Source: an uncultured bacterium
GTDB lineage: Bacteria; Zixibacteria; MSB-5A5; CAIYYT01
DNA: 64,000 nucleotides
Assembly: GCA_963726455.1 (NCBI GenBank)
Contig: CAVSCK010000005.1
Location: 96,001-160,000 of the forward strand
Reading direction: 5' to 3'
This document shows positions 9,714 through 64,000 of this stretch, piece by piece; the stretch's first letter is position 1; each line of letters starts with the position of its first letter. A program made the translations under genes and the position numbers. The notes beneath the pieces were generated by a model. It worked only from the letters and a program-made list of their open reading frames with translations. It was not told where the DNA came from and did not search any database.

Positions 9714-9730
9714 GGGGAAAAAGTGACAGA

Positions 9731-11705: not shown

Positions 11706-12695
11706 ATGAGAAGAGCTGTATTGATCGCGCTTGCCATCGTTTCGTTGTCGTTCATCTCATTTCTGACATCGCCGCAACCCGCCACTGCCGCCGCGATTGT
11801 CGCCGATCACACGACGGTCGCGAAGTTCGCGCAGATTCCGCAGGAATATTTCGACCAGATTCGCGCCAATTACCGGTTCTTCTATGGCCACACATCTCAC
11901 GGCAGCCAGATATTGACCGGAATCGGCATGTTGGCGTACGAGTATCCGCTGCAATGCGGCTCGCCGTCATTCTTCGAGTACGGCGACGATCTTGGCGCCG
12001 CCGGAGACATTACCTGGGTGCAGCCGACGCGCGATTTTCTCAATTCCAACCCGGATTACAATGTCGTGATGTGGTCATGGTGCGGCGGCGTATCCGACAA
12101 TACTGAGGCCGGTATTAACAGTTATCTCAACGCGATGGAGCAACTCGAAAACGAATTTCCGAATGTCCGATTCGTATACATGACCGGCCATCTCGACGGC
12201 ACCGGCGCCGCAGGAAACCTGTATGCGCGGAACAATCAGATTCGCCAGTGGTGTGCCGCAAACGGGAAAGTGCTTTTCGATTTTGCCGACATCGAGAGCT
12301 ACGATCCGGATGGCGCGTATTACCCCGACGGCAGCGACGCCTGCGAATGGTGCTATACTTGGTGCGCTACCCACACCTGCACTGACTGCGGAGGAAGTTG
12401 CGCGCATTCGCATTGTTTCAATTGCTATCAGAAGGCCAAGGCGTGGTGGTGGATTATGGCGCGTGTCGCCGGCTGGAACACGGATCCGGTTGGCTGCGGA
12501 GACGCCAACTCGGACGGTGGCATTGATATCAGTGACGCGGTATTCCTGATTGCCTACATCTTTTCAGGCGGCCCGGCGCCAAATCCGCTCAATTATGGCG
12601 ATGCCAACTGCGACGCAGCCATTGACATCTCCGACGCGGTCTACCTGATAAGCTACATCTTCGCCGGCGGCCCTGCCCCTTGTGCAAGTTGCTAG
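11706..12695 (+). CDS. Secreted SGNH-like hydrolase-domain protein with C-terminal dockerin
   Basis: Signal peptide; GHTSHGSQ, MWSWCG, YMTGH, LFDFADIES, Cys-rich CAHSHC; duplicated Ca-binding dockerin loops GDANSDGGIDISDAV / GDANCDAAIDISDAV. Confidence 0.75.
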   Translation: MRRAVLIALAIVSLSFISFLTSPQPATAAAIVADHTTVAKFAQIPQEYFDQIRANYRFFYGHTSHGSQILTGIGMLAYEYPLQCGSPSFFEYGDDLGAAGDITWVQPTRDFLNSNPDYNVVMWSWCGGVSDNTEAGINSYLNAMEQLENEFPNVRFVYMTGHLDGTGAAGNLYARNNQIRQWCAANGKVLFDFADIESYDPDGAYYPDGSDACEWCYTWCATHTCTDCGGSCAHSHCFNCYQKAKAWWWIMARVAGWNTDPVGCGDANSDGGIDISDAVFLIAYIFSGGPAPNPLNYGDANCDAAIDISDAVYLISYIFAGGPAPCASC

Positions 12696-12707
12696 CGCAC
12701 GCAACCC

Positions 12708-12766
12708 GTCATTGCGAGGCGTGCCCTTGAAGGTGGGAACGAGCGGGGACACGATAAGGCAATCTC
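12708..12766. repeat. REP/RPE-like palindromic element between convergent genes
   Basis: GTCATTGCGAG...GCAATCTC ends with inner cgtgccc/gggacacg arms. Confidence 0.45.
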
Positions 12767-12788
12767 TGTTCTCATTGGTGACGGAAAA

Positions 12789-13223: not shown

Positions 13224-13266
13224 ACAACACCTCCGACCAATGACGGTCGCCTATTTGATGATGCTA

Positions 13267-14998: not shown

Positions 14999-16828
14999 TT
15001 ACACCGGCGGGCAGGCAGCGCATGGCACCGGTCCCCCGCCAAATATGTATTGAATAAGGTACACCGCGTCCGCGATGTCGATCGACTTGTCACAGTTGGG
15101 ATCCCCGGCTGTGGCTGTGACCGGCGCCGGTCCCCCCGCAAAAATGTAATTTATGAGGTAGACCACGTCGGCGATATCGACTCCACCGTCACCGTTGGCG
15201 TCGCCGCAAGTGAATTCAACCAGAGTAGTCCCCCACCAAGTGCCCCAGCGCGTGTCAGCAGGGTTCGGTCCAACCGGTGTCGCCGCATATTCCTGAATCG
15301 TCCAGAAGCTGGTGCTATCCTTGGGGTCTACGACTGTGGCACTAAAATCCCCCCAGCGAACCTCAGTTCCGCCGAAGGTCTTGGTATAGATGCCCTCGCC
15401 GGCCTTGATCGTTGCCACGGTGCTCGTCGTCCCGATTGGATCGGTTGACCTGCGGCCGGTGTAAGCCGCTTCGACAAAGATGTTGGGATTCGAATGCGAG
15501 AACCCGAGAAAGACATCATTCCCGGAATTGACTGCAATACTGGGAAAGAACAGAAAGTCATTCGTGCCCATATCAACCACGCCCGATTGCACAATCGGAT
15601 TCGGTAGCGTCGCCGGATCGAGTTCATACCAGAAGACGGAAACGTGGTTGGGAGAATTCACCGGCAGGCCTGCACTGTGCGTGCACCAAATCCTGCCGTT
15701 ACGGAAGACGGCATTGAGCATACGCGAATCGTTGGTTGACACCAGTGTGGCTGTGCCCTGTTGCTTGGCGTCTGGCTGATTATTCGAGAAATTATGTGCT
15801 ACCGAGAATAACCCCGAGCCGCCAATCGTCGAACCAGGCACAGCGGCCCAAACCGGCGCCGGTCCCGTACCGGTGATTTGTGTCAATCTGAGGAGAGCTA
15901 CTCCTCCCGAGGTGAATCCGGCATTATCGACCAGATATAGTGTCGGCTCATTACCGAATGTCTGACAGACGCGAAGCGCGAAACCTGAACCGACATTGCC
16001 GAAATTGTCTGATCCCACCGGAAAACTCGTGAAGGTCAACGGTCCCCCGGCAAGCGCCGTCGATTTTTCAATTACCCACATCGACGTTCCGGAGAAAGTA
16101 TTCCCCGTCACTTTGAACATGTTGGCCGTAATGGCAATCCAGGTTCCATTATACCCGATGTCCGGATAATCAGCCCAGCTAATGTGCGAGGTGTCCGCAG
16201 GTATGCGGTAGAATTTCCAGGTCCCCATCGGATTGGCGCTGTCGCTGACCGCCATCACCACAGCGGAATTCACGGTTTGGAAGTCCGCGATGGACGACGC
16301 ATACCAACGGTTGACGCTCGGGTCGTACAGAACGTGGGGATCACTAACATTGGTCGAACCCGTTGGCGACCAGAATGTCGGATAGGAGATTGTACTCAGG
16401 ATATTCCCAAACTTGTCCTGCACCCTGATTTGTGAATTCAGCATCGTCATCACCCGGTTCAGACTTACGGCGCCGTGCGAATCCGGAGGGATCACGTGAA
16501 GGTTATCGGGCAAGGCCTGGAAATTTCTGACTACCGGCGGCACCTGCATCGGCGAAAGAAATTGCTCTGTCCCCAGACTCCCTGCACTACCCAACTTACC
16601 CAGTGGCCCACCAACCTCTCTCGGCGCCGGCATCAGCAATAGCGGTTTTACTTCCTGCACCTCCGCGGTCTTTGCCAGCGGTGCCCTCGCCTCCATGTTC
16701 TCCAAGTCCTGCCAGCTCACCTGAGCTACCGGATCAATCTGCATTTGTTGTCCGGAGACGCCAAAACTTGCCGCAGTCAGCAACAGTATTAGAACGAGCG
16801 TCGCCCGCGACGTTTGCCATATCGACAT
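14999..16828 (-). CDS. Secreted protein: uncharacterised 'PPD...RWGDFS' domain plus dockerin
   Basis: Start MSIWQ with AAAGGAG RBS; signal peptide; [43 protein letters not shown]; terminal dockerin. Confidence 0.85.
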   Translation of the reverse strand: MSIWQTSRATLVLILLLTAASFGVSGQQMQIDPVAQVSWQDLENMEARAPLAKTAEVQEVKPLLLMPAPREVGGPLGKLGSAGSLGTEQFLSPMQVPPVVRNFQALPDNLHVIPPDSHGAVSLNRVMTMLNSQIRVQDKFGNILSTISYPTFWSPTGSTNVSDPHVLYDPSVNRWYASSIADFQTVNSAVVMAVSDSANPMGTWKFYRIPADTSHISWADYPDIGYNGTWIAITANMFKVTGNTFSGTSMWVIEKSTALAGGPLTFTSFPVGSDNFGNVGSGFALRVCQTFGNEPTLYLVDNAGFTSGGVALLRLTQITGTGPAPVWAAVPGSTIGGSGLFSVAHNFSNNQPDAKQQGTATLVSTNDSRMLNAVFRNGRIWCTHSAGLPVNSPNHVSVFWYELDPATLPNPIVQSGVVDMGTNDFLFFPSIAVNSGNDVFLGFSHSNPNIFVEAAYTGRRSTDPIGTTSTVATIKAGEGIYTKTFGGTEVRWGDFSATVVDPKDSTSFWTIQEYAATPVGPNPADTRWGTWWGTTLVEFTCGDANGDGGVDIADVVYLINYIFAGGPAPVTATAGDPNCDKSIDIADAVYLIQYIFGGGPVPCAACPPV

Positions 16829-17059
16829 AAGCTTGTCTCCTTTCATCCCTTTGGACACTTCTCTTGTTATAAAGAAACCGATTCGCTCCCTCACAGTTCC
16901 CTGTGATCGGTTGTCATGAGTCTTTCTGGCTCTACGATTAAGGTACGCGGCACCCTGCCCCATTTGTGGCGTCTAATTGACCTCCATAAACACAAGTTCC
17001 TGGCGGAGTAAGCGGGCTGATTTCTGGGGGCAAGAGGCGATTCTTAAGGGTCTGCGCTC

Positions 17060-22782: not shown

Positions 22783-25700
22783 CTAACACCCTGCACACGG
22801 CGCCGGTCCACCGGCGAAGATGTACTGTATCAGATAGACCACGTCTGAGATGTCCACCGCCTGATCGCAATTGGCATCACCGGCCGCAATCGGATTCGGC
22901 GCTTGCCCGCCGGCGAAAATATACTGAATGAGAAAGACAGCATCCGAGATATCAATTGCCCCGTCACCGTTGGCATCACCGCAAAGGTAAGTCGGCACAG
23001 TTTCGTAGATGGTCAGGAACGTATCAGCAGGAATCGACGTAAATACCCGAACGGTATCAGAAGGCCAGCGAGCAATCAGAGAGTCGATCATCGTGTTCGA
23101 CCCCAGTCCGAATGCGGCTATCGGCGGGCTCTGATTCCATCCCCCGGAAACCGTCGTGATTTCGCGAATCTGCTGCTTGCCTCCAGCAACGATGCGGACT
23201 CGCGCTCCGATGCTATTCTTGTTGGATGTCGTGCCGACAAGTTTCGCCTGCAGCCAATGATTATTGTCGCCAATCTCGTTTCGAAGGAGCCGACTGCGGC
23301 AATTGTATCCGTACATATTCGACAGGTAAATGTCCAGATCGCCGTCGCGATCATAATCGGCCCAGACGCCACCCCGACCGGTGCAACCCAAATCGGTAAG
23401 AGGATTGATCAGGTTTCCGGTATAGGCCACGGCAAAGTTACCGCTCCCGTCGTTGCGGAAGAGCTTGTTGGCTTCATTGGAACCGTTCGTTACGAAAAGA
23501 TCCAAATCACCATCATTGTCGTAATCGCCCCACGCACAGCCCTGCGTGTAATCCCAAGCAGTCATCACGGCGGGCGTCACGTCCGTGAAGACTCCGTTCC
23601 CATCGTTACGAAACAACTTGTCGCTCAGCCCCGACCAGTAGACGGCAACAAACAGGTCGAGATCTCCGTCGTTGTCATAGTCGCCCCAATCCGCTGCGAA
23701 ACTATGGGAGGCAATCGCCAGAGCTGGAGGTGTGACGTCGGTAAAGGAGCCGCCGTCATTGCGCAACAGTCTGTTCGGACCGTTGAAGTTTACGATGAAT
23801 ACGTCGGGGTCATTGTCGTTATCATAGTCGGCCCAAGTCGACATATGAGTACTAAACGTATCTCCCAGGGGGCCGCTAGTAGCGTCAACGAATGTTCCAG
23901 CGCCGTCGTTACGAAACAGCTTATTCGCTGAAGTCAGTTGCGATAGATACAGATCGAGGTCACCGTCCGTGTCGTAGTCGACCCAGGCGGCACCACTGCC
24001 ATTGTTAGCATCATTTAGAGGCGCGCTGGAAACATCTGTAAAGGCGCCTCCGCCATCGTTGCGATAAAGCTTGTTAGCTCGGCTATCGTTGCGGGAGACA
24101 TAGATGTCGACATCTCCGTCGTTGTCGTAGTCGCCCCAGACTCCGACTATTCCAGTCGCCGCAGCGCCCATGCTATTTGGAGTAACCTCCACGAAAGAGC
24201 CGGCATCATTCCTGAACAGATGGCTGGAGTCCGGGTCGTACATCTGCGTCAGTAGAAGATCGAAATCGTTATCATTATCGTAATCCGCCCATGCTGCCGA
24301 CGAGATTGAGCCGTATCGTGACAAAACTCTGGGAGTGACGTCGTTCCATTCTGGCGGTGCTGAAATGAATGGAAACGCGGCCAGCAAATTCGGTCTGCCG
24401 CCGATGTTCCCAGCCGGAGGCGTGACTTGTGCCGTAGCGGTATTTTTGAGAACCGTGCGCAGAATCGCTGGAGTGAGGGTCCCGCCCAGTCCGCCGACTC
24501 CCTTCCAGCGGCCCACACAGCACGCCACTGCGCCGGCAACAATTGGAGATGCGCTTGACGTGCCCGCGAAGACGCTGGTGTATGCGTAATCAGTGCCATC
24601 GGCATTGTACAGATCTCCATAACCCGTGGTCACGACGTTCTCGCCCCAACCTTGAAGATCATAGCGAGTGCCGTAGCTGGCAAACGACAGTCGCTGCAGG
24701 TCGCCTTCCACATACGTGCCACCCGGATAAACACCACTTGCTCCGACAACAATTGCTCCCGATCCATTTGGATGCCAGTTGAGCATGTCAGTATCATAGG
24801 CGCCATTTCCGCCGGCTTCGACCACATGAATCCCGTTTGTTACCGCGTTTACAATGGCGGTGAAGACGGGATTCCATGACTGATTGTTCACGTCGCCCCA
24901 CCATTCTATGGGGATATAAGACCCTCCGCCGTAGTCCCATTGCTGTTCGAGCAGGATAATATCGCCGGCATTCAGGCTGGCAGTCGCCAGCGCAATGGCG
25001 CCAGCAACATTCCAGCTCGGCGTGGGACTTCCATAGTAAGTGCCGCATGTCTTGAGATTCGCACCGTAGCAGATTCCGGTAGTGCCCCAGCCGTTATTGT
25101 CCGCGACCATAACTCCGATGACGGCAGTCCCATGATCGTCGTCGCTGAAAGGATCGACGACATTGCTGTTTATCTGCGACCCCACTACCTTACTGATGTC
25201 TGCATGATTGTAGTTCCAGCTATATTCCAGGTCACAGACCGTGACCCCGGAACCGTTACCCCCTGTTTGCGTCCACGCGTATTGCGCATCAATCCCCACC
25301 GGAGCTGAACTCGCCGGACGCATGTATCGCTGGCCGGTGTCATAAGGGGGCGGTATCATCGGCAGCATCATTGGTTTGGGAACCGGACGCGCCCACATGA
25401 TTTCGGGTAGAAACTCGAGATCGCGGCAGAGCCCCCAAAGATCATGGCCTTTGCCAAGGCGTAATCGGTAGATGTTGTTGAGATTGTACACCGGCTGTCC
25501 CGAGTTCTGCTCGCCTACGGCTTGCATCTCATCGAGCTTCTCCTCCGAAACATTGCACGTGCGCTGCCATTCGACCGGCCCCACCGCGGCAAGCGTGCTC
25601 AACACGGAACTCAGGGACCTACCAGTAATATCCACCGGCACTCCCAGTCGTAATCTTACAGTCAGGTATGGCTCGAAGATCACCTCGATAAGGTCATCTT

Positions 25701-25869
25701 CATGTCCATATTCTCCGACGGCCTGCCTGCTCACCGACTGCGGCCCGACCGCCAGTGCCTCCGGATCCACGGCGATACTATTTCCGAAAGTCGGGGTGAT
25801 AATCACGAGCCCTACCAGGAACGCCGCCACCAGTGAGCAGACGTGCGGAACTGTTGACCTGCAATTCAC
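22783..25869 (-). CDS. S8 serine protease + FG-GAP/VCBS propeller + ASPIC/UnbV-like domain + dockerin
   Basis: Triad motifs CDLEY, DHGTAV, GTSSASP; seven W.DYD.DGDLD/N.L.RNDG repeats; IGARV...FGLG..WP; terminal dockerin; GTG start at 25869 after GGAGG. Confidence 0.9.
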   Translation of the reverse strand: MNCRSTVPHVCSLVAAFLVGLVIITPTFGNSIAVDPEALAVGPQSVSRQAVGEYGHEDDLIEVIFEPYLTVRLRLGVPVDITGRSLSSVLSTLAAVGPVEWQRTCNVSEEKLDEMQAVGEQNSGQPVYNLNNIYRLRLGKGHDLWGLCRDLEFLPEIMWARPVPKPMMLPMIPPPYDTGQRYMRPASSAPVGIDAQYAWTQTGGNGSGVTVCDLEYSWNYNHADISKVVGSQINSNVVDPFSDDDHGTAVIGVMVADNNGWGTTGICYGANLKTCGTYYGSPTPSWNVAGAIALATASLNAGDIILLEQQWDYGGGSYIPIEWWGDVNNQSWNPVFTAIVNAVTNGIHVVEAGGNGAYDTDMLNWHPNGSGAIVVGASGVYPGGTYVEGDLQRLSFASYGTRYDLQGWGENVVTTGYGDLYNADGTDYAYTSVFAGTSSASPIVAGAVACCVGRWKGVGGLGGTLTPAILRTVLKNTATAQVTPPAGNIGGRPNLLAAFPFISAPPEWNDVTPRVLSRYGSISSAAWADYDNDNDFDLLLTQMYDPDSSHLFRNDAGSFVEVTPNSMGAAATGIVGVWGDYDNDGDVDIYVSRNDSRANKLYRNDGGGAFTDVSSAPLNDANNGSGAAWVDYDTDGDLDLYLSQLTSANKLFRNDGAGTFVDATSGPLGDTFSTHMSTWADYDNDNDPDVFIVNFNGPNRLLRNDGGSFTDVTPPALAIASHSFAADWGDYDNDGDLDLFVAVYWSGLSDKLFRNDGNGVFTDVTPAVMTAWDYTQGCAWGDYDNDGDLDLFVTNGSNEANKLFRNDGSGNFAVAYTGNLINPLTDLGCTGRGGVWADYDRDGDLDIYLSNMYGYNCRSRLLRNEIGDNNHWLQAKLVGTTSNKNSIGARVRIVAGGKQQIREITTVSGGWNQSPPIAAFGLGSNTMIDSLIARWPSDTVRVFTSIPADTFLTIYETVPTYLCGDANGDGAIDISDAVFLIQYIFAGGQAPNPIAAGDANCDQAVDISDVVYLIQYIFAGGPAPCAGC

Positions 25870-25978
25870 AATAACCTCCATGCAAATAGACAGTATCACG
25901 GTCAATCCGTCCGGCAGACGGCTCGATCGCGTGCCCCTGTAGTAGTTGTTGTCAGCAGAGATGTCGTTGTCTATGTTA

Positions 25979-26007
25979 AAGATACTGCCCTTACGGAGAA
26001 ATGTCAA
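25979..26007 (-). promoter_or_regulatory. Sigma70-type promoter
   Basis: TTGACA-17-TATCTT. Confidence 0.65.
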
Positions 26008-31312: not shown

Positions 31313-32302
31313 TTACTTCAACAGTAACATCTTCTTAGTTTCGGTGAAGTCTCCTGATGACATGCGATAGAGGTAGACACCGGAGGCCACCGAAGAACCA
31401 TTCTGGTCGTTGCCGTCCCATTCGACGCGTTTGTAGCCGGCTTTCTCGTAATCGTCAAGCAAAGTCCTGACCTTCTGGCCAAGCATGTTGAACACTTCAA
31501 CTTTCACATTGCCGGATTTGGGAATCGCAAACTGAATTGTGGTCGAAGGGTTGAACGGATTGGGCACATTCTGGCTCAACTCATACTTCGTCGGAAGATT
31601 CAAATCAGCATTGCCTTCCACCGGTAACGCGATGTCGCATGGAGGAGTGAACTGCTTGCACATGGCGAATTTCGGGGTAGACTTCTTTGTCACTGTGTTG
31701 GACGCGGAGACGCCCGGTACTGGGGGCAAAGTCCAGGGAAAGATATTGGTCTCAATGAACGGGCCGGCAGGCGGATACAAAGAGACTGAGTCCAGCCGTA
31801 CCACTTGCCGAACGGTGTCAATCATCTTGATGATTATACTGCCAAGATATTGTCCGGTATCACCGGTACAGGCCGGAATAGGGGATTCACCCGAAAAGTC
31901 AGCCCAACCGAACAAGAGTGAGTCTCCCGCCGCCGACACCTTTAATTGCATGGAGCCGCCGAACAGGATGGCATTATTCTTTTTGAAGTTCTTGCTGAAC
32001 TTGAGTTGTTGACCGTTCTGCCTCACTCCGAAATTGAACCCGCCAACGGGGTAATCGTTAAACAGATAGACCGGTACGTAGAAAGAATCGCCCTTGGAAG
32101 TCGGCGAAAACGTTATACAGACGGGGCATCCAATTCGAAGCGTATCGCAAATACCCAGATCCAACTCCTTCAAGTTGGTGCTGTCGGCGTCCGCGATGCC
32201 TCCGTGTACCACATAGCACGTGTCGACCGCGTAGACGCTGGCGCCCGGCACCACCGCCGCAACCGATAGCACGAATAGCACTAGCAAAACCTTCAACTTC
32301 AT
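31313..32302 (-). CDS. Secreted single cohesin-like domain protein with T9SS/FlgD-type C-terminal domain
   Basis: Start MKLKV with GGAGG; signal peptide; DTLRIG...FYVPVYLFNDYPVGGFNF; CTD LSQNVPNPFNPST...SGVYLYR...KKMLLLK. Confidence 0.8.
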   Translation of the reverse strand: MKLKVLLVLFVLSVAAVVPGASVYAVDTCYVVHGGIADADSTNLKELDLGICDTLRIGCPVCITFSPTSKGDSFYVPVYLFNDYPVGGFNFGVRQNGQQLKFSKNFKKNNAILFGGSMQLKVSAAGDSLLFGWADFSGESPIPACTGDTGQYLGSIIIKMIDTVRQVVRLDSVSLYPPAGPFIETNIFPWTLPPVPGVSASNTVTKKSTPKFAMCKQFTPPCDIALPVEGNADLNLPTKYELSQNVPNPFNPSTTIQFAIPKSGNVKVEVFNMLGQKVRTLLDDYEKAGYKRVEWDGNDQNGSSVASGVYLYRMSSGDFTETKKMLLLK

Positions 32303-32438
32303 TTTACCTCCTATGTAGGGAAACATATTCCATTCACTGCCTGACCTTCGCATTCCAATCTCTCCTTCCTACCGCGTCAAGGATAACAGCGTTATACCTT
32401 AACTTTCTCCACTACCCACGAACGCAAAGTATTCCGAA

Positions 32439-34923: not shown

Positions 34924-37287
34924 TTACTTAGACGGCGGGGGAGGACCTCCGCTAAATATGTAACTAATCAAAAATACAACGTCAGATATGTCGACCGTAC
35001 CACTGGCATCCGCATCCCCTGAGTACAGCGAGGGCGCCGGTCCATTGCCAAAGATGTAGGAGACAAGAAAGACCGCGTCGCTGATATCTATGTTATTGCT
35101 TTGATCGGCATCGCCGCGTAACCCGTGGATGTCTATCCCCCCCGACGATATGACCGGCAGATAGGCGCCGAAACTCGTCATGACGGCGGAAGTATATCCC
35201 GGATAGTCAGTTGTGTCGACGACATTGTGTCCCGGCAGCGGCGGCACCGCATCGTACTTAAGGTACATCCTAAATAGCACTCCGTCGCCCGCAGGCAATG
35301 GCGGCGAGCCACCGCCGTTATTGGCTATCATTCTCAGCACGAACTTGAAGCCCCCGGCCCAGGTTGCCGGCAGTGTGCGGCTCTCAAACGCCAAGCCGCG
35401 CGTTCCAACAAACGAAATCGAATCCAGCGATATGTCCATGTTCCCCCCGTAGGTTATCGGCAGAATCATGGACGTTATCGGCGCGTAGTTGTGCAGACGT
35501 ACGCTCACAACCAGAGGATCGGTACGGCTTCCCGAAAAGGGCTCCATGTCCAAAGTATCGGCATAGGCAATTATGTAAGCCGGCAGATTTGTCGTGTTCG
35601 TTCCTTGCGCGCCGCTGACCCGCAACTGGACATCGTAGCGGCCGGGATTTGCGTAAACGTGCGAAGGATTCTGAACTGTCGAGCTATCGCCATCGCCAAA
35701 ATACCATTTCCAGGTGTCTATCACTCCCGGGGCGGAACCGGAAAAATTCACGCTTAGCGGCGACAGACCAAAGCGCTGATCGCTGCCAATCTGGCCGGCG
35801 AAGATCTGCGAAACTGCCGTTGCCAAATTGATCCGGCCGCTTCCAAGCAGGCCGATATAGCCGGAATTCTGGGCGTCGATATTATCAGCCGTCGTGATGA
35901 TCAGAGTATCAAGCGCATTCTTCGATATGGATGGCACGCGCGAACGCAGCAAACCGGCCATGCCGGTCACGAACGGCGCCGCCATTGACGTACCCGACAA
36001 GTAGGTGTACGTGGGCGTGTTGTGATTCGAATAGGTGGAGTAGATGTTTGAACCGGGCGCTGCAACATCGACCCAGGAACCGTAGTTGGAGAATGACGAT
36101 TTGGCGCCGGACGAGGTCAGTGACGCCACTGCCAGCACATCCGTGCGGGAGCAAAGATAACTGGCTGATGAGTTGCCATCATTTCCGGCGGCAGAGACCA
36201 CAACCATTCCGTGGGCTATCGCATTCGTCACGGCAGCGCCGATGCCGCCGTCATTGGATGATCCCCAACTGCAGTTGACGGCCGTTACGCCTTTCTGAGT
36301 CGCATAGTAGAATGCCTGCGCTGCAAAATCCATCCGCACGTATCCACCTTCTTGACCACCGTTACTCTGAGACCAGCCAATTCGTAGCGGAACGATGCGG
36401 CAGCCGCGCTGCGACGGCGACCAGCCACCGGCTACACCCGCCACTCCGATACCGTTGTTGGTTATCGCCGCCATTATTCCCGCGGTGTGGGTTCCATGGC
36501 CGTTGAAATCCATTGGATCATTGTCCGGCTCGCTGCCATCTTCACCCGGCCAGGCCGAGACACCATTCACCCAATCCCAGCCACGAATATCATCTATGTA
36601 GAGATTGCCGTCATCGTCTTCCCCAGGATTGCCGTAGTACTCGGCCCAGTTGATCCAGATATTGCCGTTGACGTATGGCGAAGCGCCCGCGAGATCGGGA
36701 TGCTGCCAATTGACTCCGGTATCCATGGCGCCAACCAGGATCACGCTGTCTCCGGTCGCCGTGTTCCAGGCCTCCGGTGCATCAACATCCCGGTCATTCG
36801 ACTGGTTCAATCCCCACTGGATGCTGAACGACGGATCGTTTGGTACGGCGAAGACCGGATGTATGCTCACTTTCTCGACGTGCTCGATATCGGGAATTCC
36901 CCGAAAGTCGTTGAACGCCATTTCCAGTGAATCCTTGGCGTCGAATACGATTCGGTAATATCCCGACAGATCGAGTTCTTCAGCCGAACGCGGTTTCTCC
37001 GCGCCGACAAATAGCTTTTCAAAGGCCTTGGTACGATATTTTGAGAACAAGGCATCGACGGAGGTCAAGCCGGTATGTACGGCAGATTTCCCCGTGACAA
37101 AATGATTCCTGGCGACCTGCGGCTGAAAATTGACTACCAGCACTCCGTCGGCATACCACCAGTCATTCCCCGACCCAGCCGTCTGGGCGACAGCCGTCTC
37201 ATTCAGCAAGCCGCCCATCGTGAGGAGCGGTAGCAAAATGAAGAGGAAAAGGGCAATATAAGGGCGCGCCATTAAAGAAACGAACAT
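34924..37287 (-). CDS. S8 subtilase + PKD + cohesin-like domain + dockerin (tandem paralogue)
   Basis: AMDTG, GHGTHTAG, GTSMAAP; WYFGDG PKD; VSVRLHN...PLPAGDGVLFRMYL; Cys-free dockerin. Confidence 0.9.
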   Translation of the reverse strand: MFVSLMARPYIALFLFILLPLLTMGGLLNETAVAQTAGSGNDWWYADGVLVVNFQPQVARNHFVTGKSAVHTGLTSVDALFSKYRTKAFEKLFVGAEKPRSAEELDLSGYYRIVFDAKDSLEMAFNDFRGIPDIEHVEKVSIHPVFAVPNDPSFSIQWGLNQSNDRDVDAPEAWNTATGDSVILVGAMDTGVNWQHPDLAGASPYVNGNIWINWAEYYGNPGEDDDGNLYIDDIRGWDWVNGVSAWPGEDGSEPDNDPMDFNGHGTHTAGIMAAITNNGIGVAGVAGGWSPSQRGCRIVPLRIGWSQSNGGQEGGYVRMDFAAQAFYYATQKGVTAVNCSWGSSNDGGIGAAVTNAIAHGMVVVSAAGNDGNSSASYLCSRTDVLAVASLTSSGAKSSFSNYGSWVDVAAPGSNIYSTYSNHNTPTYTYLSGTSMAAPFVTGMAGLLRSRVPSISKNALDTLIITTADNIDAQNSGYIGLLGSGRINLATAVSQIFAGQIGSDQRFGLSPLSVNFSGSAPGVIDTWKWYFGDGDSSTVQNPSHVYANPGRYDVQLRVSGAQGTNTTNLPAYIIAYADTLDMEPFSGSRTDPLVVSVRLHNYAPITSMILPITYGGNMDISLDSISFVGTRGLAFESRTLPATWAGGFKFVLRMIANNGGGSPPLPAGDGVLFRMYLKYDAVPPLPGHNVVDTTDYPGYTSAVMTSFGAYLPVISSGGIDIHGLRGDADQSNNIDISDAVFLVSYIFGNGPAPSLYSGDADASGTVDISDVVFLISYIFSGGPPPPSK

Positions 37288-40400: not shown

Positions 40401-40688
40401 CTGTCTCTGATTTCTGCCCGGGTTGCTTTGATGGTCGATCGTGCTGTAGCCGACTTGTTTGGTGAACATGTAATATCCCAGGGAAGACGGAGCAGTTGAC
40501 TGCGGCTTGCTGGCAACATTGCTGCCCGGATTGTCAATCAACTGATCGCCATTCCAATGCGTAGCCGAAAGTCCGACTTCCGCCGAGCGCGAGGCCTTAT
40601 CGTACGCCGCATTGGCGCCGAAGGCCGCTCCGCACAGGGATAACACGAAAATAGACAGAACAAATAGTACCGAGAGAGTTCTCGTCAT
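37440..40688 (-). CDS. Large secreted Cys-rich protein of unknown function with C-terminal dockerin
   Basis: Signal peptide; Asp-box-like ESNDAGATWG; Ig-like segment; terminal dockerin; AAAGGAG RBS. Confidence 0.85.
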   Translation of the reverse strand: MTRTLSVLFVLSIFVLSLCGAAFGANAAYDKASRSAEVGLSATHWNGDQLIDNPGSNVASKPQSTAPSSLGYYMFTKQVGYSTIDHQSNPGRNQRQIAVGCSGNIHNVFMYAEVDYWTGGSRNIRYVANVPPSNPPLPTDIGPLTSGYASIATDPINGFAIMAYHWTSPDATFGRSTVQAGMQTSCAGLIFGLADYPVAPASLPARPNCQNIQIGIPGTIEEGYIWPSVASDLNTVSGRPIAHILTCEYAGGTTSPGRDTTGRYSLVYYKSTDDVVAPSATCGTFLDSVASSSYEIVASPVAASNKVAAVYFYPRSWMANKFARNWGDNDDIVYRESNDAGATWGPRTTVKHFTNAEDSIVASDGSVMCMRANEMSPLYDNNECLHVLYTTMWNDTAGHTYLIYPAKLFHWSSCNSGCQSLVKDASDYGSNNSCRPPGYQLNISKPSLSECLQGGNRRLYAVYLLNPDYLTADSTYTDCGAAASSGATRYVNYEIFAQGSTSLNGDLWGNPVNLSNTRSDNCLTGACFAEGFTSTAEHVSDSIRIQYMVDKSPGDYIYAQGGAVINPIMNMSYPCFTVATDAVLSADPVERVWPFHTTPAAGPNHTASFPIKLTNVGNISADYVRTVAYTPAGSWLTFDVGGTSSVPAGCTNFQTTNVTATGPGTEGVFKATITWSWLAKTLNFPVELYNFNTWNMEANLDIRTSTVRMVTDQNSRAAAQKPHGYGFHYASDHPDTNYLFDGSVLMGTDSLHMSTAIFSDSTGFIGSFAGRIGRLFCTSGMSYDSINTSFRHSWGVGCNRDSSVAFDVDFYAPKAPDSADFMVAKIAFYAGPKNPAATINNMMISYACDFDVPDDSSDNQAGTDELRQMVYQQGRWGSNTTRYAALAGIRGDNNPLEAGFVQDNNSTVYRVQGYVNDTMWKKIQTSVGYTAFAGTAQDLNSMLVFAKSATITPKATGTFDIYVILAGQPRTGGSLAGLQAAVDAGKKFLCAHGVPTVKPAWCAATGCVDCGDANSDGAVDISDAVFLIQYIFAGGAAPGSCNYAFGKGDANGDCTVDISDAVYLIQYIFAGGAAPHCGVGCK

Positions 40689-55552: not shown

Positions 55553-57832
55553 CTACTTCATCAAAACCATCTTGCGCGTTTCCGCACGATCGCCCACGGT
55601 CAGACGGTAGAAGTACACACCCGACGGCGCGGTTTCACCGTTATCGTAGCTTCCGCGCCACTTGAAAGTGTACTTACCTGCCGCTAGTGGTTCATCCACG
55701 AGCGTAGAAACCTTCTCGCCCAGCAGATTAAAGACCACCAGCCGCACCGGTTTGTTAGCCATGCCGGCGCTTACCGCAAACTCGATTGTGGTCTCCGGAT
55801 TGAACGGGTTCGGGAAATTCTGGTTAAGCGTAAAGTCGCTCGGTAATGCCGGATGGCTCATACCCTTTACCGGAATCCCCGCCGCATTCGGATCGGACAG
55901 AACCGCAGTCGTAAGCTGTACATCTTTACCATCGGCTGAGATGTCACCAGAGCTTACCAGCGGCAGCTTTAGCATCGTACCGGAGCCCGGTAGAATATTC
56001 GTTTTGGATGACGCACGCGGGTAAAGCAGGACGATTAACTTGCCGTCGGCATAGTCTTTGTAACGCATATACAGCCCGGATGACAACTCAGTCGTCTGCG
56101 GCGCGGCAAAGTGTACCTTCTCGGGATTATAGTTGATCTCCAATTGCACACCGGCGATATTCGTTGGGAAGTCAACGTTTACGTCAATAGTGCTGCCGTT
56201 GACCAACGCTTCACCGTCACCCAACTGCACCACCGCTTCCTTGCCGTTCCATTGCGGAACATTCGGCGGAACACCTCCGAAAATCTGGTTGATGATCGAT
56301 ACCAGGTCGATCACGTCGACGCTGACGTTCTTGTCAAAATCGGCGGCGCTGAATTGCCGGCGCGTCAAAGTGTGATCCCCGATAATGTATCCGACCGTCA
56401 CGACCAAATCCGCGACGTCCACTCGGCGGTCACCATTGACGTCACCGAGCTCATCGACCACGAACACCCCCGTGGTATCAAATTTCAACTGCACAGAAGC
56501 CACCGAGGGATTCGGATTAACCGATTCCCAGGCATCTTCGAATAAAATCTTCGATTCGCCTACAGTTGCCATCGGGCGCACTGACGCCCAGAACTTGAAG
56601 ATTGTCGTTCCGGATACCGTTCCGGGCTGGACTTTCTGATTGTTCAACCCGAAGGCGACGACTTTCACATGGCCGGGTGAGTCGGCCAGGTTCTCGTATA
56701 CCGTGAAGTCGGTGAGACGTTCTGTCGGAACCAGAGAATCAAGCGAGAAGGCGCTGCTGTTGTAAACGAAGTCAAACTGCACACCATATACGTCGCCGAG
56801 GTTGTTCAGATTGATTGGTATTGGAATATCCAACAACCCGGGTATTCCTCCGGCAATCGCCCGGTAGTTGATCGATGACGGCGAGTACAGAATGTCTTCC
56901 GTTGGCGCCGGTGTGCCGACATTGATCGTCACCGATCGCGGCGGGTCAGCCCAGGCGCTGGAATCATCATGGCAGGTGAAAGTTATTGTGAAATTGCCCA
57001 CCTGCTGAATGTTGGGCCAGTTGAACGTCCCGGACGCTGCGCCGTTGCCGGTAACTTGTCCCCCACTGCCAAAGGTCGCACCCGATGGCAGTCCTCCTGC
57101 TATCAAAGTGATTTTCTGCGGTGAATCTGGATCGGTGGCAGTGACATTGAAATTGACCGTATTACCCAACTGGACATTGTAAGTCGTCTGTGATATCGGG
57201 CTTATTGTTGGTGGGCTGTTATGTCCCGGTACGACCGTGCCGATTGTGAGTGTGCCAGACACCAGCGTCGGCTCAACGTCTGGTTTGGTGCCGCTACTGT
57301 CGGTGTAGGTACATACTCGATAATCTTGATTGTTCGGGTCGAGAGGATTGTAGAGTCTGATTTGAGTCGTGGTCCCGTTGGGTAGACCGTCCTTGACCTT
57401 AACCCAGAACTCCATGATGTTTCCCCGGCCGCGCGGAATCGCCTGCTGCCAACCGATTCCATAGTAGACCGACGTAACCGAGTCGCTCGTTCGCATTTCC
57501 TGCGCATACTCGAACAGTGGCGGCATCATAACACCACGTTCGATCTGGTTGTACTGAATCTGAAATACATGCGCATTCGGATCCGTGGAATCTACTATTC
57601 CGGCGTATTTGACCACATTGGTATCGATGCGGAAGTAGACGAATATATTGGAGAGATCCATACTGTCGTTCACTACGAACAGCTTGATGGGAACCACAGA
57701 TCCTGCCGCCACCGTGACGTCCTGGACCTTAAAAGTGTCAATCGTCGACGTGCCCTGTGCCCAGGCCACCTGCGTCAGCACGCAGAAGGCCAGCACGACC
57801 GCCAGCAGCATCAATGACATTCGTTTAGACAT
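55553..57832 (-). CDS. Scaffoldin-like protein: cohesin-like + cadherin-like + cohesin + internal dockerin + cohesin-like + T9SS/FlgD-type CTD
   Basis: Signal peptide; IPINLNNLGDVYGVQFDFVYNS; GDVNGDRRVDVADLV...ADFDKNVSVDVIDLV; IAGVQLEINYNP; LNQNFPNPFNP...RKMVLMK. Confidence 0.85.
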   Translation of the reverse strand: MSKRMSLMLLAVVLAFCVLTQVAWAQGTSTIDTFKVQDVTVAAGSVVPIKLFVVNDSMDLSNIFVYFRIDTNVVKYAGIVDSTDPNAHVFQIQYNQIERGVMMPPLFEYAQEMRTSDSVTSVYYGIGWQQAIPRGRGNIMEFWVKVKDGLPNGTTTQIRLYNPLDPNNQDYRVCTYTDSSGTKPDVEPTLVSGTLTIGTVVPGHNSPPTISPISQTTYNVQLGNTVNFNVTATDPDSPQKITLIAGGLPSGATFGSGGQVTGNGAASGTFNWPNIQQVGNFTITFTCHDDSSAWADPPRSVTINVGTPAPTEDILYSPSSINYRAIAGGIPGLLDIPIPINLNNLGDVYGVQFDFVYNSSAFSLDSLVPTERLTDFTVYENLADSPGHVKVVAFGLNNQKVQPGTVSGTTIFKFWASVRPMATVGESKILFEDAWESVNPNPSVASVQLKFDTTGVFVVDELGDVNGDRRVDVADLVVTVGYIIGDHTLTRRQFSAADFDKNVSVDVIDLVSIINQIFGGVPPNVPQWNGKEAVVQLGDGEALVNGSTIDVNVDFPTNIAGVQLEINYNPEKVHFAAPQTTELSSGLYMRYKDYADGKLIVLLYPRASSKTNILPGSGTMLKLPLVSSGDISADGKDVQLTTAVLSDPNAAGIPVKGMSHPALPSDFTLNQNFPNPFNPETTIEFAVSAGMANKPVRLVVFNLLGEKVSTLVDEPLAAGKYTFKWRGSYDNGETAPSGVYFYRLTVGDRAETRKMVLMK

Positions 57833-60879: not shown

Positions 60880-60902
60880 CCCGGTAAAAGATACCTGAGA
60901 AA

Positions 60903-63623
60903 TTACTTCATCAGCACCATTTTCTTGGTGTCGGTGTATGAGCCAGCGTTCAACTTGTAGAAGTAAACACCGCTCGGGACCATCGAAGCATCCCATTCAA
61001 CGGAAACATTGCCAACGCCATTGCCGTTGAAGCTCTTCACGAGCTGGCCGGCGACGTTGTAAATGTTAAGGGTCCAGTCGGACTGGGTCGGAAGCGACAG
61101 ACCAATCTTCGTGGTGGGGTTGAAGGGGTTCGGAACGTTCTGCGACAACGCAAACGAAGTCGGAAGAGCGGTCTTGTTGACGCGGGTGTTCAGCATGTTA
61201 CCGTTATAGTCGGCAACTTCGACGCCCTTAAGCTCAACATTACCACTAACCGTGAACAGATCGTTCGAGCCAGCGGCCAAACGATTGGTCATGTTTTCCG
61301 TGCCGGAATAAACGAGAACCTTAAGTTCGCCGTTGTTCTCAGCATAGTCAACCTTCATGTTCGTGTTGCTTACAACGTTGTAAGAACCGTTGACTGCGAA
61401 AGTCGCATAAACAGCGCCAAGTTCGCTACCGGCTTCGGTCGAAACCGCGCCATTAGCAAAATTGACCGTCGCCGAAGTAGCAAACGGAGCCAGCTTCGGA
61501 TACGGAAGAGCATCACCAACGATAATGCGCAGCAAGTATACAAGATCACCAACCGTCAACGGACGACCGTCGTTGTTCACGTCGGAAGCCGCGATTGAGG
61601 CCTGGCGAGCAAGCACCGGCGGAGTGACTGAATAGTCGTCAGCCGGAAGAGCAGAGGCGCCATACAGGAAGTAGTTCGTGTACAGAACCGCGTCTGCGAT
61701 TTCGTTCATGATACCGTTCAGGTTGATGTCGCCGCGGGCGTCAATGTCGCCGGCGCAAACGATGTCAACACCACCGTTCCAGAAATAGATGAACTCAAGC
61801 GGGAAAACCTTCATGCCAACAAGACATGCCTGATCGCAATAGCCACCGAAATGGACGGCACTGCCGCAATCGCTGCCGGTAATGTTGTAGTTAGGATCGC
61901 CAAGCTCACCAGTCCAGAGGTAATCTCTCACTTCTTTCGAAATGAATAACGTGTCACCAGTCTGGGACGAAATGCCGTTATCACCGCAATCCATCCAAGC
62001 AAACCGGATATCAACCTTCTGGCATTCAAACGTACGATCGTTAGTCACATAGAACTTCAGGCTGACCAGTTCGCCACCATCCGGAATCTTGTAGCAAGAC
62101 GGATGAGCAGCGCCGTTGTTCTGGTCGGCAATCGCGACTACGCGCAGGAAACCACTCGGGCACGGGCCACCGCAGTTACCCTGGGCGCCGAAACGATAGG
62201 TGAAGTATTCCCAACCGCAGGCCTTGGCGGCAGCGCCAAGCTCGGCTGAGTAGAAAGTAAGACCGGAAGCGTCATAGGCAACGAGGAAGTCAAAACCGCC
62301 CATGCGTTCGGAACCTTTAACCTTCGTGATCGAAACCCACTCATACTGGCCCTGAAGCGAGTTGTGAGTCTTTTCAATCTGAACGATAAAGGGCTGTACT
62401 TCCATAACAAATACGCTGAACGTGCAGGAAACCGTAGCACCACAAGGATCATGAGCAGTAGCGGTAAACTCGAAGGTCTTGTTGCCATCATCCGGAGCGG
62501 TGGTGACAAACGAGAACTTGCCAAGGCCACTAATGCCAAAGCTGCTGGTTCCAGCCGGAGCCGGACCAGCGGACTGCACAACACTCCAAGTCAGGTTGTC
62601 GCACGGATCAGGATCCGTAGCGTTCAACGTGTAATCAAACGTGTTGCCCATACCAACTTGCTGCAACGTAGTCGGGCAGTTGGCGATTACTGGATTGTTG
62701 TTGGTCCAGGTAATCGTGAACGGGAAGGCCTGAGTACCACCGCAACCATTGGTAGCAGTGACGACAACATCAGTCGTGCCGCACTGAGCGGAAGCCGGAA
62801 CTGACAACTCACCGGAGGTAGCATTCATCGTACCAGCGGAAGCCGTGAAAGTCACCGGATTGGCCGCCGGAGTGTTGCCACCCTCGGTCGCCGCAAACGT
62901 AAACGTATAGGCCGAGCAATGATTCTTGCTCACGGCCGGACCCGGAGTCGACGTGAATACTGGCGGAACGCAAGGGATCTTGCCCAAGCAGAACACCACA
63001 TCCGGGGCATCCGGAACCTGCGGAGAAGTATTGGCACCACCGTTGAAAGTCGGGGCATAGGCATTGCCGCTGCCTTCGTCGAATTTCCACGGACCTGCCG
63101 GCGGGAAGAAGATGTTATTGACCGTGAAAGTACCGGTCGAAGTGCCTACCGGCGGGCAAGCGTCCAATGACGGATCGGCCGGCATAATCAGCACCAACGA
63201 CCAGCAAAGGGTCGAAGTGGCATGAGCCGGAAGCGGAACGTCCTGAGCCGCGCCACCGATCATCCAAGAACCGGGAAGTGCAGAAGCCGTAAACTTCAAA
63301 CCACCTACGTCGAAAGCACCAAGTGCATCGCCGTATTCTTGGACATATTTGGCACCGGAGTTCGGCTTGTTGCCGAACGGGGTCTTCCAAGTGAAGGCCA
63401 GGGCCGGCGAAGCCGTGAACTGGAAGCCGAGCGTCGTACCCAGAATCGGGCCCGTATTGGTGACCCAGAGTTCAAATGGGTTCTCTTGTCCGACATAAAC
63501 CTTATTTTGAAGGCTGAGCGGGTACTGCATATTGAATTTGACAGTAACGTCGCCGGACGCGAAAACGCTCGCTGACAGAAGAAGCATAAACGAAATAAAC
63601 AGAACTAAACAATTGCGTTTCAT
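60903..63623 (-). CDS. Scaffoldin/surface-layer-like protein: cohesin-like + 2 Ig-like + cohesin + internal dockerin + T9SS-type CTD
   Basis: Start MKRNCL with AAGGAG; signal peptide; MGGFDFLVAYDAS; RGDINLNG...ASDVNNDGRPLTVGDLV; LSQNVPNPFNP...KKMVLMK; strongly biased codon usage by eye. Confidence 0.85.
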   Translation of the reverse strand: MKRNCLVLFISFMLLLSASVFASGDVTVKFNMQYPLSLQNKVYVGQENPFELWVTNTGPILGTTLGFQFTASPALAFTWKTPFGNKPNSGAKYVQEYGDALGAFDVGGLKFTASALPGSWMIGGAAQDVPLPAHATSTLCWSLVLIMPADPSLDACPPVGTSTGTFTVNNIFFPPAGPWKFDEGSGNAYAPTFNGGANTSPQVPDAPDVVFCLGKIPCVPPVFTSTPGPAVSKNHCSAYTFTFAATEGGNTPAANPVTFTASAGTMNATSGELSVPASAQCGTTDVVVTATNGCGGTQAFPFTITWTNNNPVIANCPTTLQQVGMGNTFDYTLNATDPDPCDNLTWSVVQSAGPAPAGTSSFGISGLGKFSFVTTAPDDGNKTFEFTATAHDPCGATVSCTFSVFVMEVQPFIVQIEKTHNSLQGQYEWVSITKVKGSERMGGFDFLVAYDASGLTFYSAELGAAAKACGWEYFTYRFGAQGNCGGPCPSGFLRVVAIADQNNGAAHPSCYKIPDGGELVSLKFYVTNDRTFECQKVDIRFAWMDCGDNGISSQTGDTLFISKEVRDYLWTGELGDPNYNITGSDCGSAVHFGGYCDQACLVGMKVFPLEFIYFWNGGVDIVCAGDIDARGDINLNGIMNEIADAVLYTNYFLYGASALPADDYSVTPPVLARQASIAASDVNNDGRPLTVGDLVYLLRIIVGDALPYPKLAPFATSATVNFANGAVSTEAGSELGAVYATFAVNGSYNVVSNTNMKVDYAENNGELKVLVYSGTENMTNRLAAGSNDLFTVSGNVELKGVEVADYNGNMLNTRVNKTALPTSFALSQNVPNPFNPTTKIGLSLPTQSDWTLNIYNVAGQLVKSFNGNGVGNVSVEWDASMVPSGVYFYKLNAGSYTDTKKMVLMK

Positions 63624-63925
63624 TTGTAGCTCCTTAAAAGGTTGCTGAAACGAATTCAGGTTCAAGGTTAACACTCACCTTGTCCTTATGTTGTAGCCCC
63701 TGTGCCGCAAAAGACCATCGCCCGAAGCGACTTCTTTTCGGCGGGTGAGATTCACAGAGGTTGCACGCAATGGCAAACTCTGACTCGTCTCAGATGGTGG
63801 TTGAACGTTTAAGCCTCTTCTTCTCCTAAGATCCTTCTCACCTCCTTTCACTTTTTTTCTCTCCTTATTCTCATTCAATTTCATCTGTCTATACTCTATT
63901 CGGTTTTCATGTCTCGCCAAAAACG

Positions 63926-64000
63926 CTAGCCGGCGCAGTGTGGCGACGCGCCGCCCGCGAATATGTACAGAATCAAAAACACTGCATCGGAAATGTCGAT
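63926..64000 (-). CDS. 3' end of another dockerin-terminated protein (partial)
   Basis: Manual translation: IDISDAVFLILYIFAGGASPHCAG*. Confidence 0.9.
   Translation of the reverse strand: MDISDAVFLILYIFAGGASPHCAG

Follow-up and report, generated by a model that had tools for sequence, protein, structure and literature searches.

What would a bacterium with two membranes build from secreted proteases and adhesins that end in dockerins, encoded side by side with cohesin-bearing proteins that carry type IX secretion system (T9SS) sorting domains? This question is raised by the window analysed here, a 64,000-nucleotide stretch of one contig from an uncultured Zixibacteria-type bacterium, whose 100%-complete source genome comprises 3.64 Mb in 5 contigs. 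We propose as probable that the window holds the core scaffoldin locus of a non-cellulolytic system for cohesin-dockerin assembly, which extends over the lineage of this Zixibacteria-type diderm. Over 52.3 kb, it contains 11 dockerin open reading frames (ORFs), where the genome-wide density predicts 2.04 (Poisson P ~1e-5), and 11 cohesin modules, where 0.62 are predicted (P ~7e-11). An earlier note, made from the letters of the window alone, had described these genes as lying within about 52 kb. This stretch does not form a system by itself: only 11 of the genome's 142 dockerin ORFs lie inside, together with about a quarter of its cohesin modules. The system spans the genome, and the window is the main locus of its scaffoldins.

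Dockerin tails and cohesin modules

Structurally, the dockerin tails of the window follow one plan, consisting of an internally duplicated segment in which the motif GDAxxDG-x-DISD is followed by a helix ending in YIF. Their alignment also shows the usual positions of the cysteines, namely before loop 1, within loop 2, and two at the very end; the tails of 34924 and 41363 have no cysteines. The earlier note had counted ten C-terminal dockerins, and all of them are real by Pfam Dockerin_1 (PF00404, curated cut-off 22.9 bits), by their tail motifs and by the full ORF of the truncated member. Eight proteins, named here by the first position of their ORFs (11706, 14999, 17136, 20031, 22783, 32491, 37440 and 41363), score between 24.1 and 37.2 bits at their C-termini. 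The tail of 34924 falls under the cut-off with 19.7 bits, its duplicated GDAxxxG..DISD..YIF pattern being intact, and the tail at 63926, cut by the window edge, belongs in the genome to an ORF of 319 amino acids (aa; L025) that reaches 36.7 bits.

A profile built from the window tails and run on the 16,871 genome ORFs of at least 60 aa identified 151 dockerin modules in 142 ORFs. Pfam returned at least 129 dockerin matches genome-wide, with 150 of 218 candidates scored. The module lies no more than 15 residues from the C-terminus in 135 of the 142 ORFs, and 113 have a signal-peptide-like N-terminus by a crude pattern; several of the others are visible fragments or pattern misses. By the strict calcium-loop pattern D-x-[DN]-x-[DNS]-x6-D (12 residues), 108 of the 151 modules contain two loops, while 30 contain one, 12 none and 1 three. 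All 20 matches of the dockerin profile in the PDB are dockerins, the best being 4dh2_B (3.7e-8). Two chains matched with E 1.8e-6, 8x39_A and 8x3a_A, are named 'Serine protease', and a dockerin on a protease appears therefore to have been crystallised already. Elsewhere in the genome, a 524-aa ORF (G000:C4:507295-508869) is built like a scaffoldin in reverse, with no fewer than four dockerin modules in tandem (Dockerin_1 123.7 bits).

The counterparts of these tails are four proteins that carry a T9SS-type C-terminal sorting domain (CTD). As the earlier note had claimed, 31313, 55553, 57957 and 60903 all exceed the TIGR04183 cut-off of 23 bits, and the pattern PNPFNP...KKMxLxK is visible in each. 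Their cohesin-like domains were confirmed by two routes. Pfam Cohesin (PF00963, cut-off 24.1 bits) recognises 55553 and 57957; 31313 and 60903 have no match to this family, even at E<=10, and were assigned by hhalign and predicted fold. In hhalign, cohesin A of 57957 pairs with the N-terminal domain of 31313 at 99.6% probability (E 2.3e-24), and cohesin B of 57957 with the 60903 central domain at 99.3% (E 3.2e-20). The 60903 and 57957 families align over their full length (E 2e-88, 760 columns). Five of the eight module pairs run reached 95.3-99.6%: cohesin A with cohesin B of 57957, the N-domain of 31313 with 57957 cohesin A and with the N-domain of 60903, the N-domain of 60903 with 57957 cohesin A, and cohesin B of 60903 with cohesin B of 57957. 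The N-domain of 31313 paired with 57957 cohesin B gave 88%, and two type A versus type B pairs gave 2.7% and 13%. By eye, one cohesin subtype has F/Y-x-PPAG near its end (31313, 57957 cohesin A and the 60903 N-domain), and a more canonical subtype has GGF-x-F...YD (57957 cohesin B and the 60903 central domain).

Fold comparison covered the modules of 31313 and 60903. The AlphaFold2 (AF2) model of 31313, built from a 46-row alignment with a predicted local distance difference test (pLDDT) value of 81.4, matched mostly solved cohesins in Foldseek (TMt 0.65 to 4ums, 0.67 to 3ul4, 0.66 to 4uyp and 0.63 to 1anu; also 2ccl), and seven homologues of 31313 carry a precomputed Pfam Cohesin assignment. 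For the whole 906-aa model of 60903 (pLDDT 81.5), Foldseek gave generic multi-immunoglobulin (Ig) matches only, and VIA resolved the cohesin domain: residues 408-624 align to 5nrk_A with Z 15.8 and a root-mean-square deviation of 2.5 Å over 142 of its 143 residues, each of the 20 best rows being a cohesin. Both proteins model as cohesin beta-sandwiches, one of the two points on which the earlier note had let its proposal turn. Against PDB sequences, the 31313-family profile matched through its CTD only and did not detect the cohesin domain, and all eight matches of the cohesin profile are cohesins.

Genome-wide, the cohesins were counted with five non-iterated orthologue-based profiles, which replaced an iterated hidden Markov model that grew from 10 to 19, 26 and 32 ORFs and did not converge. 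These profiles find 41 modules in 39 ORFs, a count to which the three Pfam-supported cohesins of 55553 are mostly extra. Cargo-type dockerins terminate 18 of the 39 ORFs, 7 carry a CTD only, 3 carry both and 11 neither. The cohesin proteins are thus of three kinds: CTD-bearing anchors, adaptors with a C-terminal dockerin, and free ones. The non-catalytic scaffoldins of the window bear three cohesins (55553), two (57957 and 60903) or one (31313), and Pfam finds no carbohydrate-binding module (CBM), SLH or LPXTG-type family on these four proteins down to E<=10.

Furthermore, 57957 and 60903 feature a second kind of dockerin-like module, which has 13-residue loops outside the strict calcium-loop pattern and directly follows the canonical-type cohesin. 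A profile of this variant dockerin matches nine genome ORFs, the two of the window (58800-59300 and 61500-62380, minus strand) and seven more in G000. Eight of them have a canonical-type cohesin immediately upstream, and the ninth is a 78-aa fragment adjoining a cohesin ORF. Region 425-850 of 60903 recurs with 50-74% identity in more than 100 public clusters with varied N-terminal domains. From this arrangement, the cohesin and variant-dockerin tandem may be a fixed intramolecular unit and not a free plug; in the 60903 AF2 model its region has a pLDDT of only 50-74.

Each of 18 genomes from the same family has dockerin matches (53-141 per genome), and so do 9 of 12 from the class's other families. 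Scaffoldin 57957 is matched over most or all of its length in 16 of the 18 family genomes (39-58% identity) and, outside the family, in 4 genomes of 3 other families (32-38%). A related-locus search with 57957 in genome contigs returned none, and the orthologues came from the genome search instead. In two relatives (G008 and G011), frames resembling 60903 and 55553 flank the 57957 orthologue, and the frames of the giant adhesin come directly downstream of these scaffoldin genes. Co-occurrence was assessed over 31 related genomes with a cohesin profile made from the window's ten cohesin modules. All 27 genomes with at least 16 dockerin matches have cohesin matches (1-21 each), and the other 4, whose dockerin matches number 0-2, lack them; among genomes that are related to each other, this is a consistent pattern and no statistical proof.

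This pattern bears on a different reading, in which the dockerins act mostly independently of cohesins, as calcium-binding, disulfide-stapled stabilising tails or as binders of glycan or lipopolysaccharide, and the cohesin-like domains are spacers. Such a role would sit well with the numbers (151 dockerin against about 41-43 cohesin modules), with most cohesin modules scoring under the Pfam cut-off and a weak match in only 8 of 26 further candidates, and with the many non-cellulosomal dockerins that, to our knowledge, have no known partner. We nevertheless consider it unlikely, as dockerins and cohesins co-occur over the 31 genomes, both module types cluster in one syntenic locus, the cohesins sit preferentially on CTD-anchored or dockerin-bearing proteins, and their fold is that of dockerin-binding type I cohesins (Z 15.8).

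Cargo, sorting signals and the proposed surface assembly

The dockerin-bearing proteins were scanned with Pfam at E<=1e-5, covering all 142 ORFs (131 elsewhere and 11 in the window or at its edge). Within the window, the three S8 proteases, the M6 metalloprotease and the LamG adhesin that the earlier note had recognised are confirmed, and its statement that cellulase and CBM3 are missing holds by Pfam. The SGNH-like hydrolase is unconfirmed, Pfam having shown no SGNH/GDSL family on the window's dockerin proteins. Genome-wide, 25 of the 142 are peptidases, distributed over 13 families: S8 (eight), M1 (four), M14 (two), C25 (two), and C1, C10, C11, C39-like, M4, M6, M12, M23 and M43 with one each. 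One further protein is a Porphyromonas-type peptidylarginine deiminase (PAD_porph). A hand tally gives about 27 proteins with beta-propeller repeats (FG-GAP, LVIVD, SBBP, NHL, BNR/sortilin and PQQ), and four are right-handed beta-helices, two of them with Rha78A-like Ig domains.

This cargo also speaks to the possibility that the system is a true polysaccharide-degrading equivalent of the cellulosome, with glycoside hydrolases too divergent to recognise. The four beta-helix proteins, including the two with Rha78A-like Ig domains, could be polysaccharide lyases, 61 of the 142 cargo ORFs are unannotated, and a GH35/42-like gene lies within the locus. Against this stand the glycoside hydrolase families themselves, found in 0 of the 142 dockerin ORFs at E<=1e-5 compared with 25 peptidases, the scaffoldins without a CBM, and the GH35-like protein without a dockerin. 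We regard a polysaccharide-degrading role of this kind as very improbable.

The proteins of this system bear two kinds of C-terminal tag. By our own profiles, the genome holds 57 CTD ORFs and 142 dockerin ORFs, and only 4 ORFs bear both; one of the four has a weak CTD match, and three of the four carry cohesins and are scaffoldins. The two tags are almost mutually exclusive. The families C25, PAD_porph and C10 are elsewhere classical T9SS cargo. In this genome, two gingipain-like C25 peptidases, one PAD_porph protein and one C10 peptidase carry a dockerin instead of a CTD (Table 1).

The earlier note had proposed a T9SS-like anchor, and this claim stands in part: type A CTDs, SprA and PorU are present, GldK/L/M were not found, and attachment to the surface is a prediction from these parts. 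SprA is encoded in one 2,178-aa frame (TIGR04189 636.3 bits summed, cut-off 200), and PorU scores 720.8 bits (NF033707, cut-off 420). The SprA and PorU regions lie at G000 C3:164629-171041 and C3:253184-257542.

We postulate that the CTD scaffoldins are exported via the SprA-type translocon and that the PorU sortase would then fix them to the outer-membrane surface, as with T9SS substrates of Bacteroidota. There, their cohesins would capture the calcium-loaded dockerins of the cargo. Because its two halves are almost identical, the dockerin could bind in either orientation (dual binding mode). Adaptors with both cohesin and dockerin, which include two S8 proteases of the window, would branch the assembly into a coat. 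This coat would hold proteases and adhesins at the surface, with which the bacterium would attach to proteinaceous particles or to other cells and digest them. The surface-attached degrading and adhesion complex of the earlier note is thus retained as to its parts list (dockerins, cohesins, CTDs, and protease and adhesin cargo), with binding and attachment, and hence the surface location of the complex, kept as predictions.

A number of observations weigh against this proposal. Binding between cohesins and dockerins is something we infer from module homology, and dockerin modules outnumber cohesin modules by about 3.5 to 1. The four genomes with neither module belong to two families and represent few independent events. 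Some ORFs are pieces of frameshifted genes, so that ORF counts are approximate. In 61 of the 142 cargo ORFs, by a hand tally, the dockerin is the sole Pfam family, leaving the functional spectrum incomplete. The remaining points concern export. A PorV-like barrel reaches only 88.2 bits (NF033710, cut-off 250), with the match falling in three stretches of a 1,076-aa frame that adjoins porU; a large insert splits the barrel. For GldK/L/M, the models TIGR03525, TIGR03513, TIGR03517 and PF12081 found no match in the 100%-complete genome; two of these four models matched nothing in any control genome either, and divergent homologues are possible. Either the T9SS motor and ring are too divergent to detect, or the lineage runs a reduced T9SS. 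Of the type II secretion system (T2SS), there is a single full secretin with GspD-like N-terminal and secretin regions, which scores 188 bits against the GspD cut-off of 351, and the GspG models match pilin N-termini only. For cargo without a CTD, the T9SS and T2SS models run identified no outer-membrane route.

Two dockerin genes have the secretin gene (C4:196988-198136) and a pilin-like gene (C4:191793) as neighbours, no more than about 10 kb away (G000:C4:185372-198136). Separately, a complex prediction of 57957 cohesins A and B with the 22783 dockerin and 2 calcium ions, run without controls, gave ipSAE values of 0.13 and 0.15 against a mark of 0.32, for a job whose three protein chains plus ligand are unlike the tool's calibration; it speaks on neither side of the binding question.

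The gap in export leaves room for a variant of the mechanism, in which the cargo folds and forms its disulfides in the periplasm, binds the cohesin of a CTD carrier there, and is co-translocated with it through SprA. The T9SS moves folded proteins. Piggy-back export of this kind would account for the near exclusiveness of the two C-terminal tags, for 135 cargo proteins without a recognised outer-membrane export signal in a genome with no T2SS at cut-off, for the four-cysteine dockerin flanks, as expected of folding in an oxidising periplasm, and for dockerins on families that use CTDs elsewhere. However, the secretin with its N0-like region could belong to a divergent T2SS, some cargo proteins exceed 1,500 aa, and we know of no established case in which a T9SS co-translocates non-covalent complexes. 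On balance, we rate it as distinctly unlikely. If true, the single signal of about 10 CTD carriers would serve about 135 passengers, a non-covalent hitch-hiking that would be a new principle of type IX secretion and would explain why dockerins replace CTDs on the gingipain-like, PPAD-like and C10 enzymes.

Layout of the locus and the giant adhesin

From about 15 kb to its end, the window is almost entirely a block of minus-strand genes by ORF listing and Pfam (Table 1). The bodies of three dockerin proteins gave little to go on. For 11706, no further Pfam family was found even at E<=10; for 37440, there was no other Pfam family and no informative lead from a protein atlas search; and in the same kind of search, the body of 14999 resembled widespread clusters of hypothetical proteins without a Pfam family, with no functional lead.

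Table 1. Coordinates of the dockerin, cohesin and neighbouring genes; positions are those of the window unless a genome contig is given.
Position (strand)	Feature	Evidence
1-11518 (-)	[NiFe]-hydrogenase cluster (large and small subunits) with maturation genes: HypE-like AIRS, HypD, HypF, HycI protease, NAD-binding/FeS subunit, cNMP-binding protein, 4Fe-4S protein	
11706..12695 (+)	329-aa secreted protein, cargo-type C-terminal dockerin	Dockerin_1 32.7 bits, aa 265-318
14999..16963 (-)	654-aa ORF, C-terminal dockerin	Dockerin_1 32.1 bits
17136..19592 (-)	818 aa: unannotated N-terminal region, TSP_3, He_PIG Ig, dockerin	TSP_3 99.7, He_PIG 29.2, Dockerin_1 28.1 bits
20031..22424 (-)	M6 (InhA-like) metalloprotease, TSP_3, He_PIG, dockerin	Peptidase_M6 83.5, Dockerin_1 24.1 bits; TIGR03296 207.8 bits, above cut-off
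22783..26007 (-)	S8 subtilase, FG-GAP propeller, UnbV_ASPIC, dockerin	Peptidase_S8 49.4, FG-GAP_3 177.6, Dockerin_1 37.2 bits
26143-26997 (-)	284-aa RpoD/RpoS-like sigma-70 factor	
27085-28609 (-)	HtrA/DegP-type serine protease, two PDZ domains; split into overlapping ORFs 27085-28146 and 28088-28609	
28953-31169 (-)	GH35/GH42-like protein without dockerin or CTD	Weak exo-beta-D-glucosaminidase-like match, 184 bits, far under cut-off
31313..32353 (-)	Monovalent anchor: signal peptide, one cohesin (~aa 42-235), T9SS type A CTD	TIGR04183 42.3 bits
32491..34890 (-)	S8 subtilase, PKD, cohesin-like module aa 582-707, dockerin	Peptidase_S8 128.4, Dockerin_1 29.9 bits; cohesin profile E 1.2e-9
34924..37287 (-)	S8 subtilase, PKD, cohesin-like module aa 576-721, dockerin	Peptidase_S8 152.4, Dockerin_1 19.7 bits; cohesin profile E 2.6e-10
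37440..40688 (-)	1082-aa protein, C-terminal dockerin	Dockerin_1 34.1 bits
41363..55524 (-)	Giant adhesin, ~4,700 aa: N-terminal LamG, ~35 tandem 93-aa Ig/cadherin-like repeats, C-terminal dockerin	Pfam Laminin_G_3, Big_9, He_PIG, Cadherin-like, Dockerin_1
55553..57832 (-)	Scaffoldin: signal peptide, three cohesins (27-200, 312-455, 528-665), Ig between the first two, internal canonical dockerin 461-524, T9SS CTD	Pfam Cohesin 50.3 bits in 3 stretches, Dockerin_1 28.5, TIGR04183 33.4 bits
57957..60422 (-)	Scaffoldin: cohesin A 40-195, two Ig-like domains, cohesin B 378-540, variant dockerin with 13-residue loops 539-604, X module, T9SS CTD	Pfam Cohesin 45.1, TIGR04183 40.3 bits
60903..63674 (-)	Paralogue of 57957: N-terminal cohesin-like module 38-222, Ig domains, cohesin 432-641, variant dockerin 648-722, X module, CTD	hhalign, VIA; TIGR04183 39.8 bits
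63926..64000 (-)	Last 24 codons of a 319-aa cohesin and dockerin adaptor-type protein running past the window	Dockerin_1 36.7 bits, cohesin profile E 4.2e-6
G000:C3:574900-579795, C5:424045-428514, C4:31861-33852, C5:377653-379752	Two C25, one PAD_porph and one C10 dockerin ORFs	Pfam

The adhesin is the largest element of the block. Its six listed ORFs form seven head-to-tail overlapping open frames, a pattern that points to six frameshifts rather than stop codons, and a 279-bp repeat in 35.4 copies spans the frames. We treat them as one gene, because relatives keep long intact frames of 3,082-5,422 aa over matching adhesin-repeat sequence. The frameshifts may be either sequencing errors or gene decay; of 7 frameshift junctions, made up of the adhesin's six and that of the HtrA gene, only 1 has a homopolymer run of at least 5 bases. 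The split of the HtrA/DegP gene looks like a frameshift of the same kind.

Further genes are interspersed in, or adjoin, the dockerin block. The sigma-70 factor, whose gene separates that of an S8 dockerin protease from the HtrA gene, may regulate the locus. The GH35/GH42-like gene is situated between scaffoldin and protease genes. At the start of the window, the [NiFe]-hydrogenase cluster, which is unrelated to the dockerin system, is followed by a gene for a multihaem NapC/NirT-cytochrome c7 protein. The Zixibacteria-like origin suggested by the earlier note agrees with the best public match of HypD, which is 81% identical in a metagenome-assembled genome of Candidatus Zixiibacteriota. HypD is a mobile gene and a weak lineage marker alone; the homologues of 31313 and 60903 named by NCBI are likewise Zixibacteria proteins, annotated with T9SS sorting domains.

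Relation to known systems and meaning

The modules are homologous to those of clostridial and ruminococcal cellulosomes, which pair a duplicated calcium-loop F-hand dockerin with a beta-sandwich cohesin (Z 13.9-15.8; solved cohesins compared: A. cellulolyticus ScaB 5nrk, R. flavefaciens ScaC 4uyp and C. thermocellum 1ohz). The likeness extends to anchoring, adaptor and monovalent scaffoldins and to a dockerin count on the scale of the largest cellulosomes. P. cellulosolvens has more than 200 dockerins. Its cohesins number 78 (PMC5590126). Unlike in cellulosomes, the host here is a diderm, a T9SS CTD takes the place of SLH or sortase as the anchor, there is no glycoside hydrolase cargo or CBM3, the dockerin cysteines are conserved, and each scaffoldin has fewer cohesins. 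The window system is not a cellulosome, as it has neither the glycoside hydrolase cargo nor the CBM nor the SLH or sortase anchoring; its architecture is cellulosome-like.

A second comparison concerns the anchor. In P. gingivalis, attachment to the surface involves the CTD, PorU and anionic lipopolysaccharide (A-LPS). Its T9SS is described as attaching gingipains and PPAD to the surface (PMC4804311). Both organisms have a type A CTD, a PorU-type sortase, SprA/Sov homologues and the families C25, PAD_porph and C10. Here, in contrast, C25, PAD_porph and C10 bear dockerins, the CTD is placed on cohesin proteins, and PorK/L/M homologues were not found. Since the CTD sits on the cohesin proteins and not on the enzymes, an indirect, non-covalent attachment is implied.

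The closest precedent is Candidatus Stygibacter (Cloacimonadota), for which Williams et al. 2021 (PMC8542988) described, in silico, a cellulosome-like complex with a T9SS-type CTD on its cohesin scaffoldin. There, the host is likewise a diderm of the Fibrobacteres-Chlorobi-Bacteroidetes (FCB) group, enzymes with signal peptides, S8 and C25 peptidases among them, end in dockerins, the scaffoldin is non-catalytic with its CTD proposed as the cell anchor, and a non-cellulolytic complex was proposed. Stygibacter is described with a single scaffoldin of 3,755 aa that combines tandem cohesins and CBM2/CBM3, with few cargo proteins, and with GH18 and GH57 enzymes. In contrast, the present system has several small scaffoldins of 1-3 cohesins with no CBM by Pfam, about 140 cargo proteins with no glycoside hydrolase family, many adaptors with cohesin and dockerin, cysteine-flanked dockerins and a fixed pair of cohesin and variant dockerin. 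The 'planctosome' proposed for freshwater Planctomycetes (Nemodlikiaceae) by Andrei et al. 2019 (PMC6461901) resembles it in that its modules are unconnected with cellulose and that it has peptidase cargo, TSP_3 repeats, an adaptor combining dockerin and cohesin, and a suggested attachment to the outer membrane. It differs by its lamin-tail domain anchor, its few components (M12B and M14 peptidases) and its phylum. A full-text search of open-access papers gave, among the matches listed, no paper on a cohesin-dockerin system in Zixibacteria. The idea as such has precedents, namely the Cloacimonadota complex of 2021, with its T9SS-type CTD and its proposed non-cellulolytic role, and the planctosome of 2019. 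The features that set the present variant apart are its cellulosome-scale size, its protease, adhesin and propeller cargo, its T9SS-type anchor, its cysteine-flanked dockerins, and the dockerin that replaces the CTD on families that are elsewhere direct T9SS cargo.

If the modules bind as their homology suggests, about 1 gene in 20 of a 3.6-Mb genome would be devoted to a plug-and-socket surface assembly. Such an assembly would rival the biggest cellulosomes in size and would be built of proteases, a deiminase, adhesins and propellers, not of cellulases. For this, 135 cargo proteins, none with a known signal for export across the outer membrane, would have to come into contact with the cohesins. 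It would also provide about 40 cohesins and a single, nearly uniform dockerin as a concrete set for testing, and the small, cysteine-stapled, near-identical dockerins, together with the monovalent cohesin-CTD anchors, could be possible orthogonal parts for Gram-negative surface display. Zixibacteria are an uncultured phylum of sediment and soil. If binding holds, cohesin-dockerin assembly would be a general strategy of diderms of the FCB group, serving particle attachment and protein scavenging, or possibly predation.

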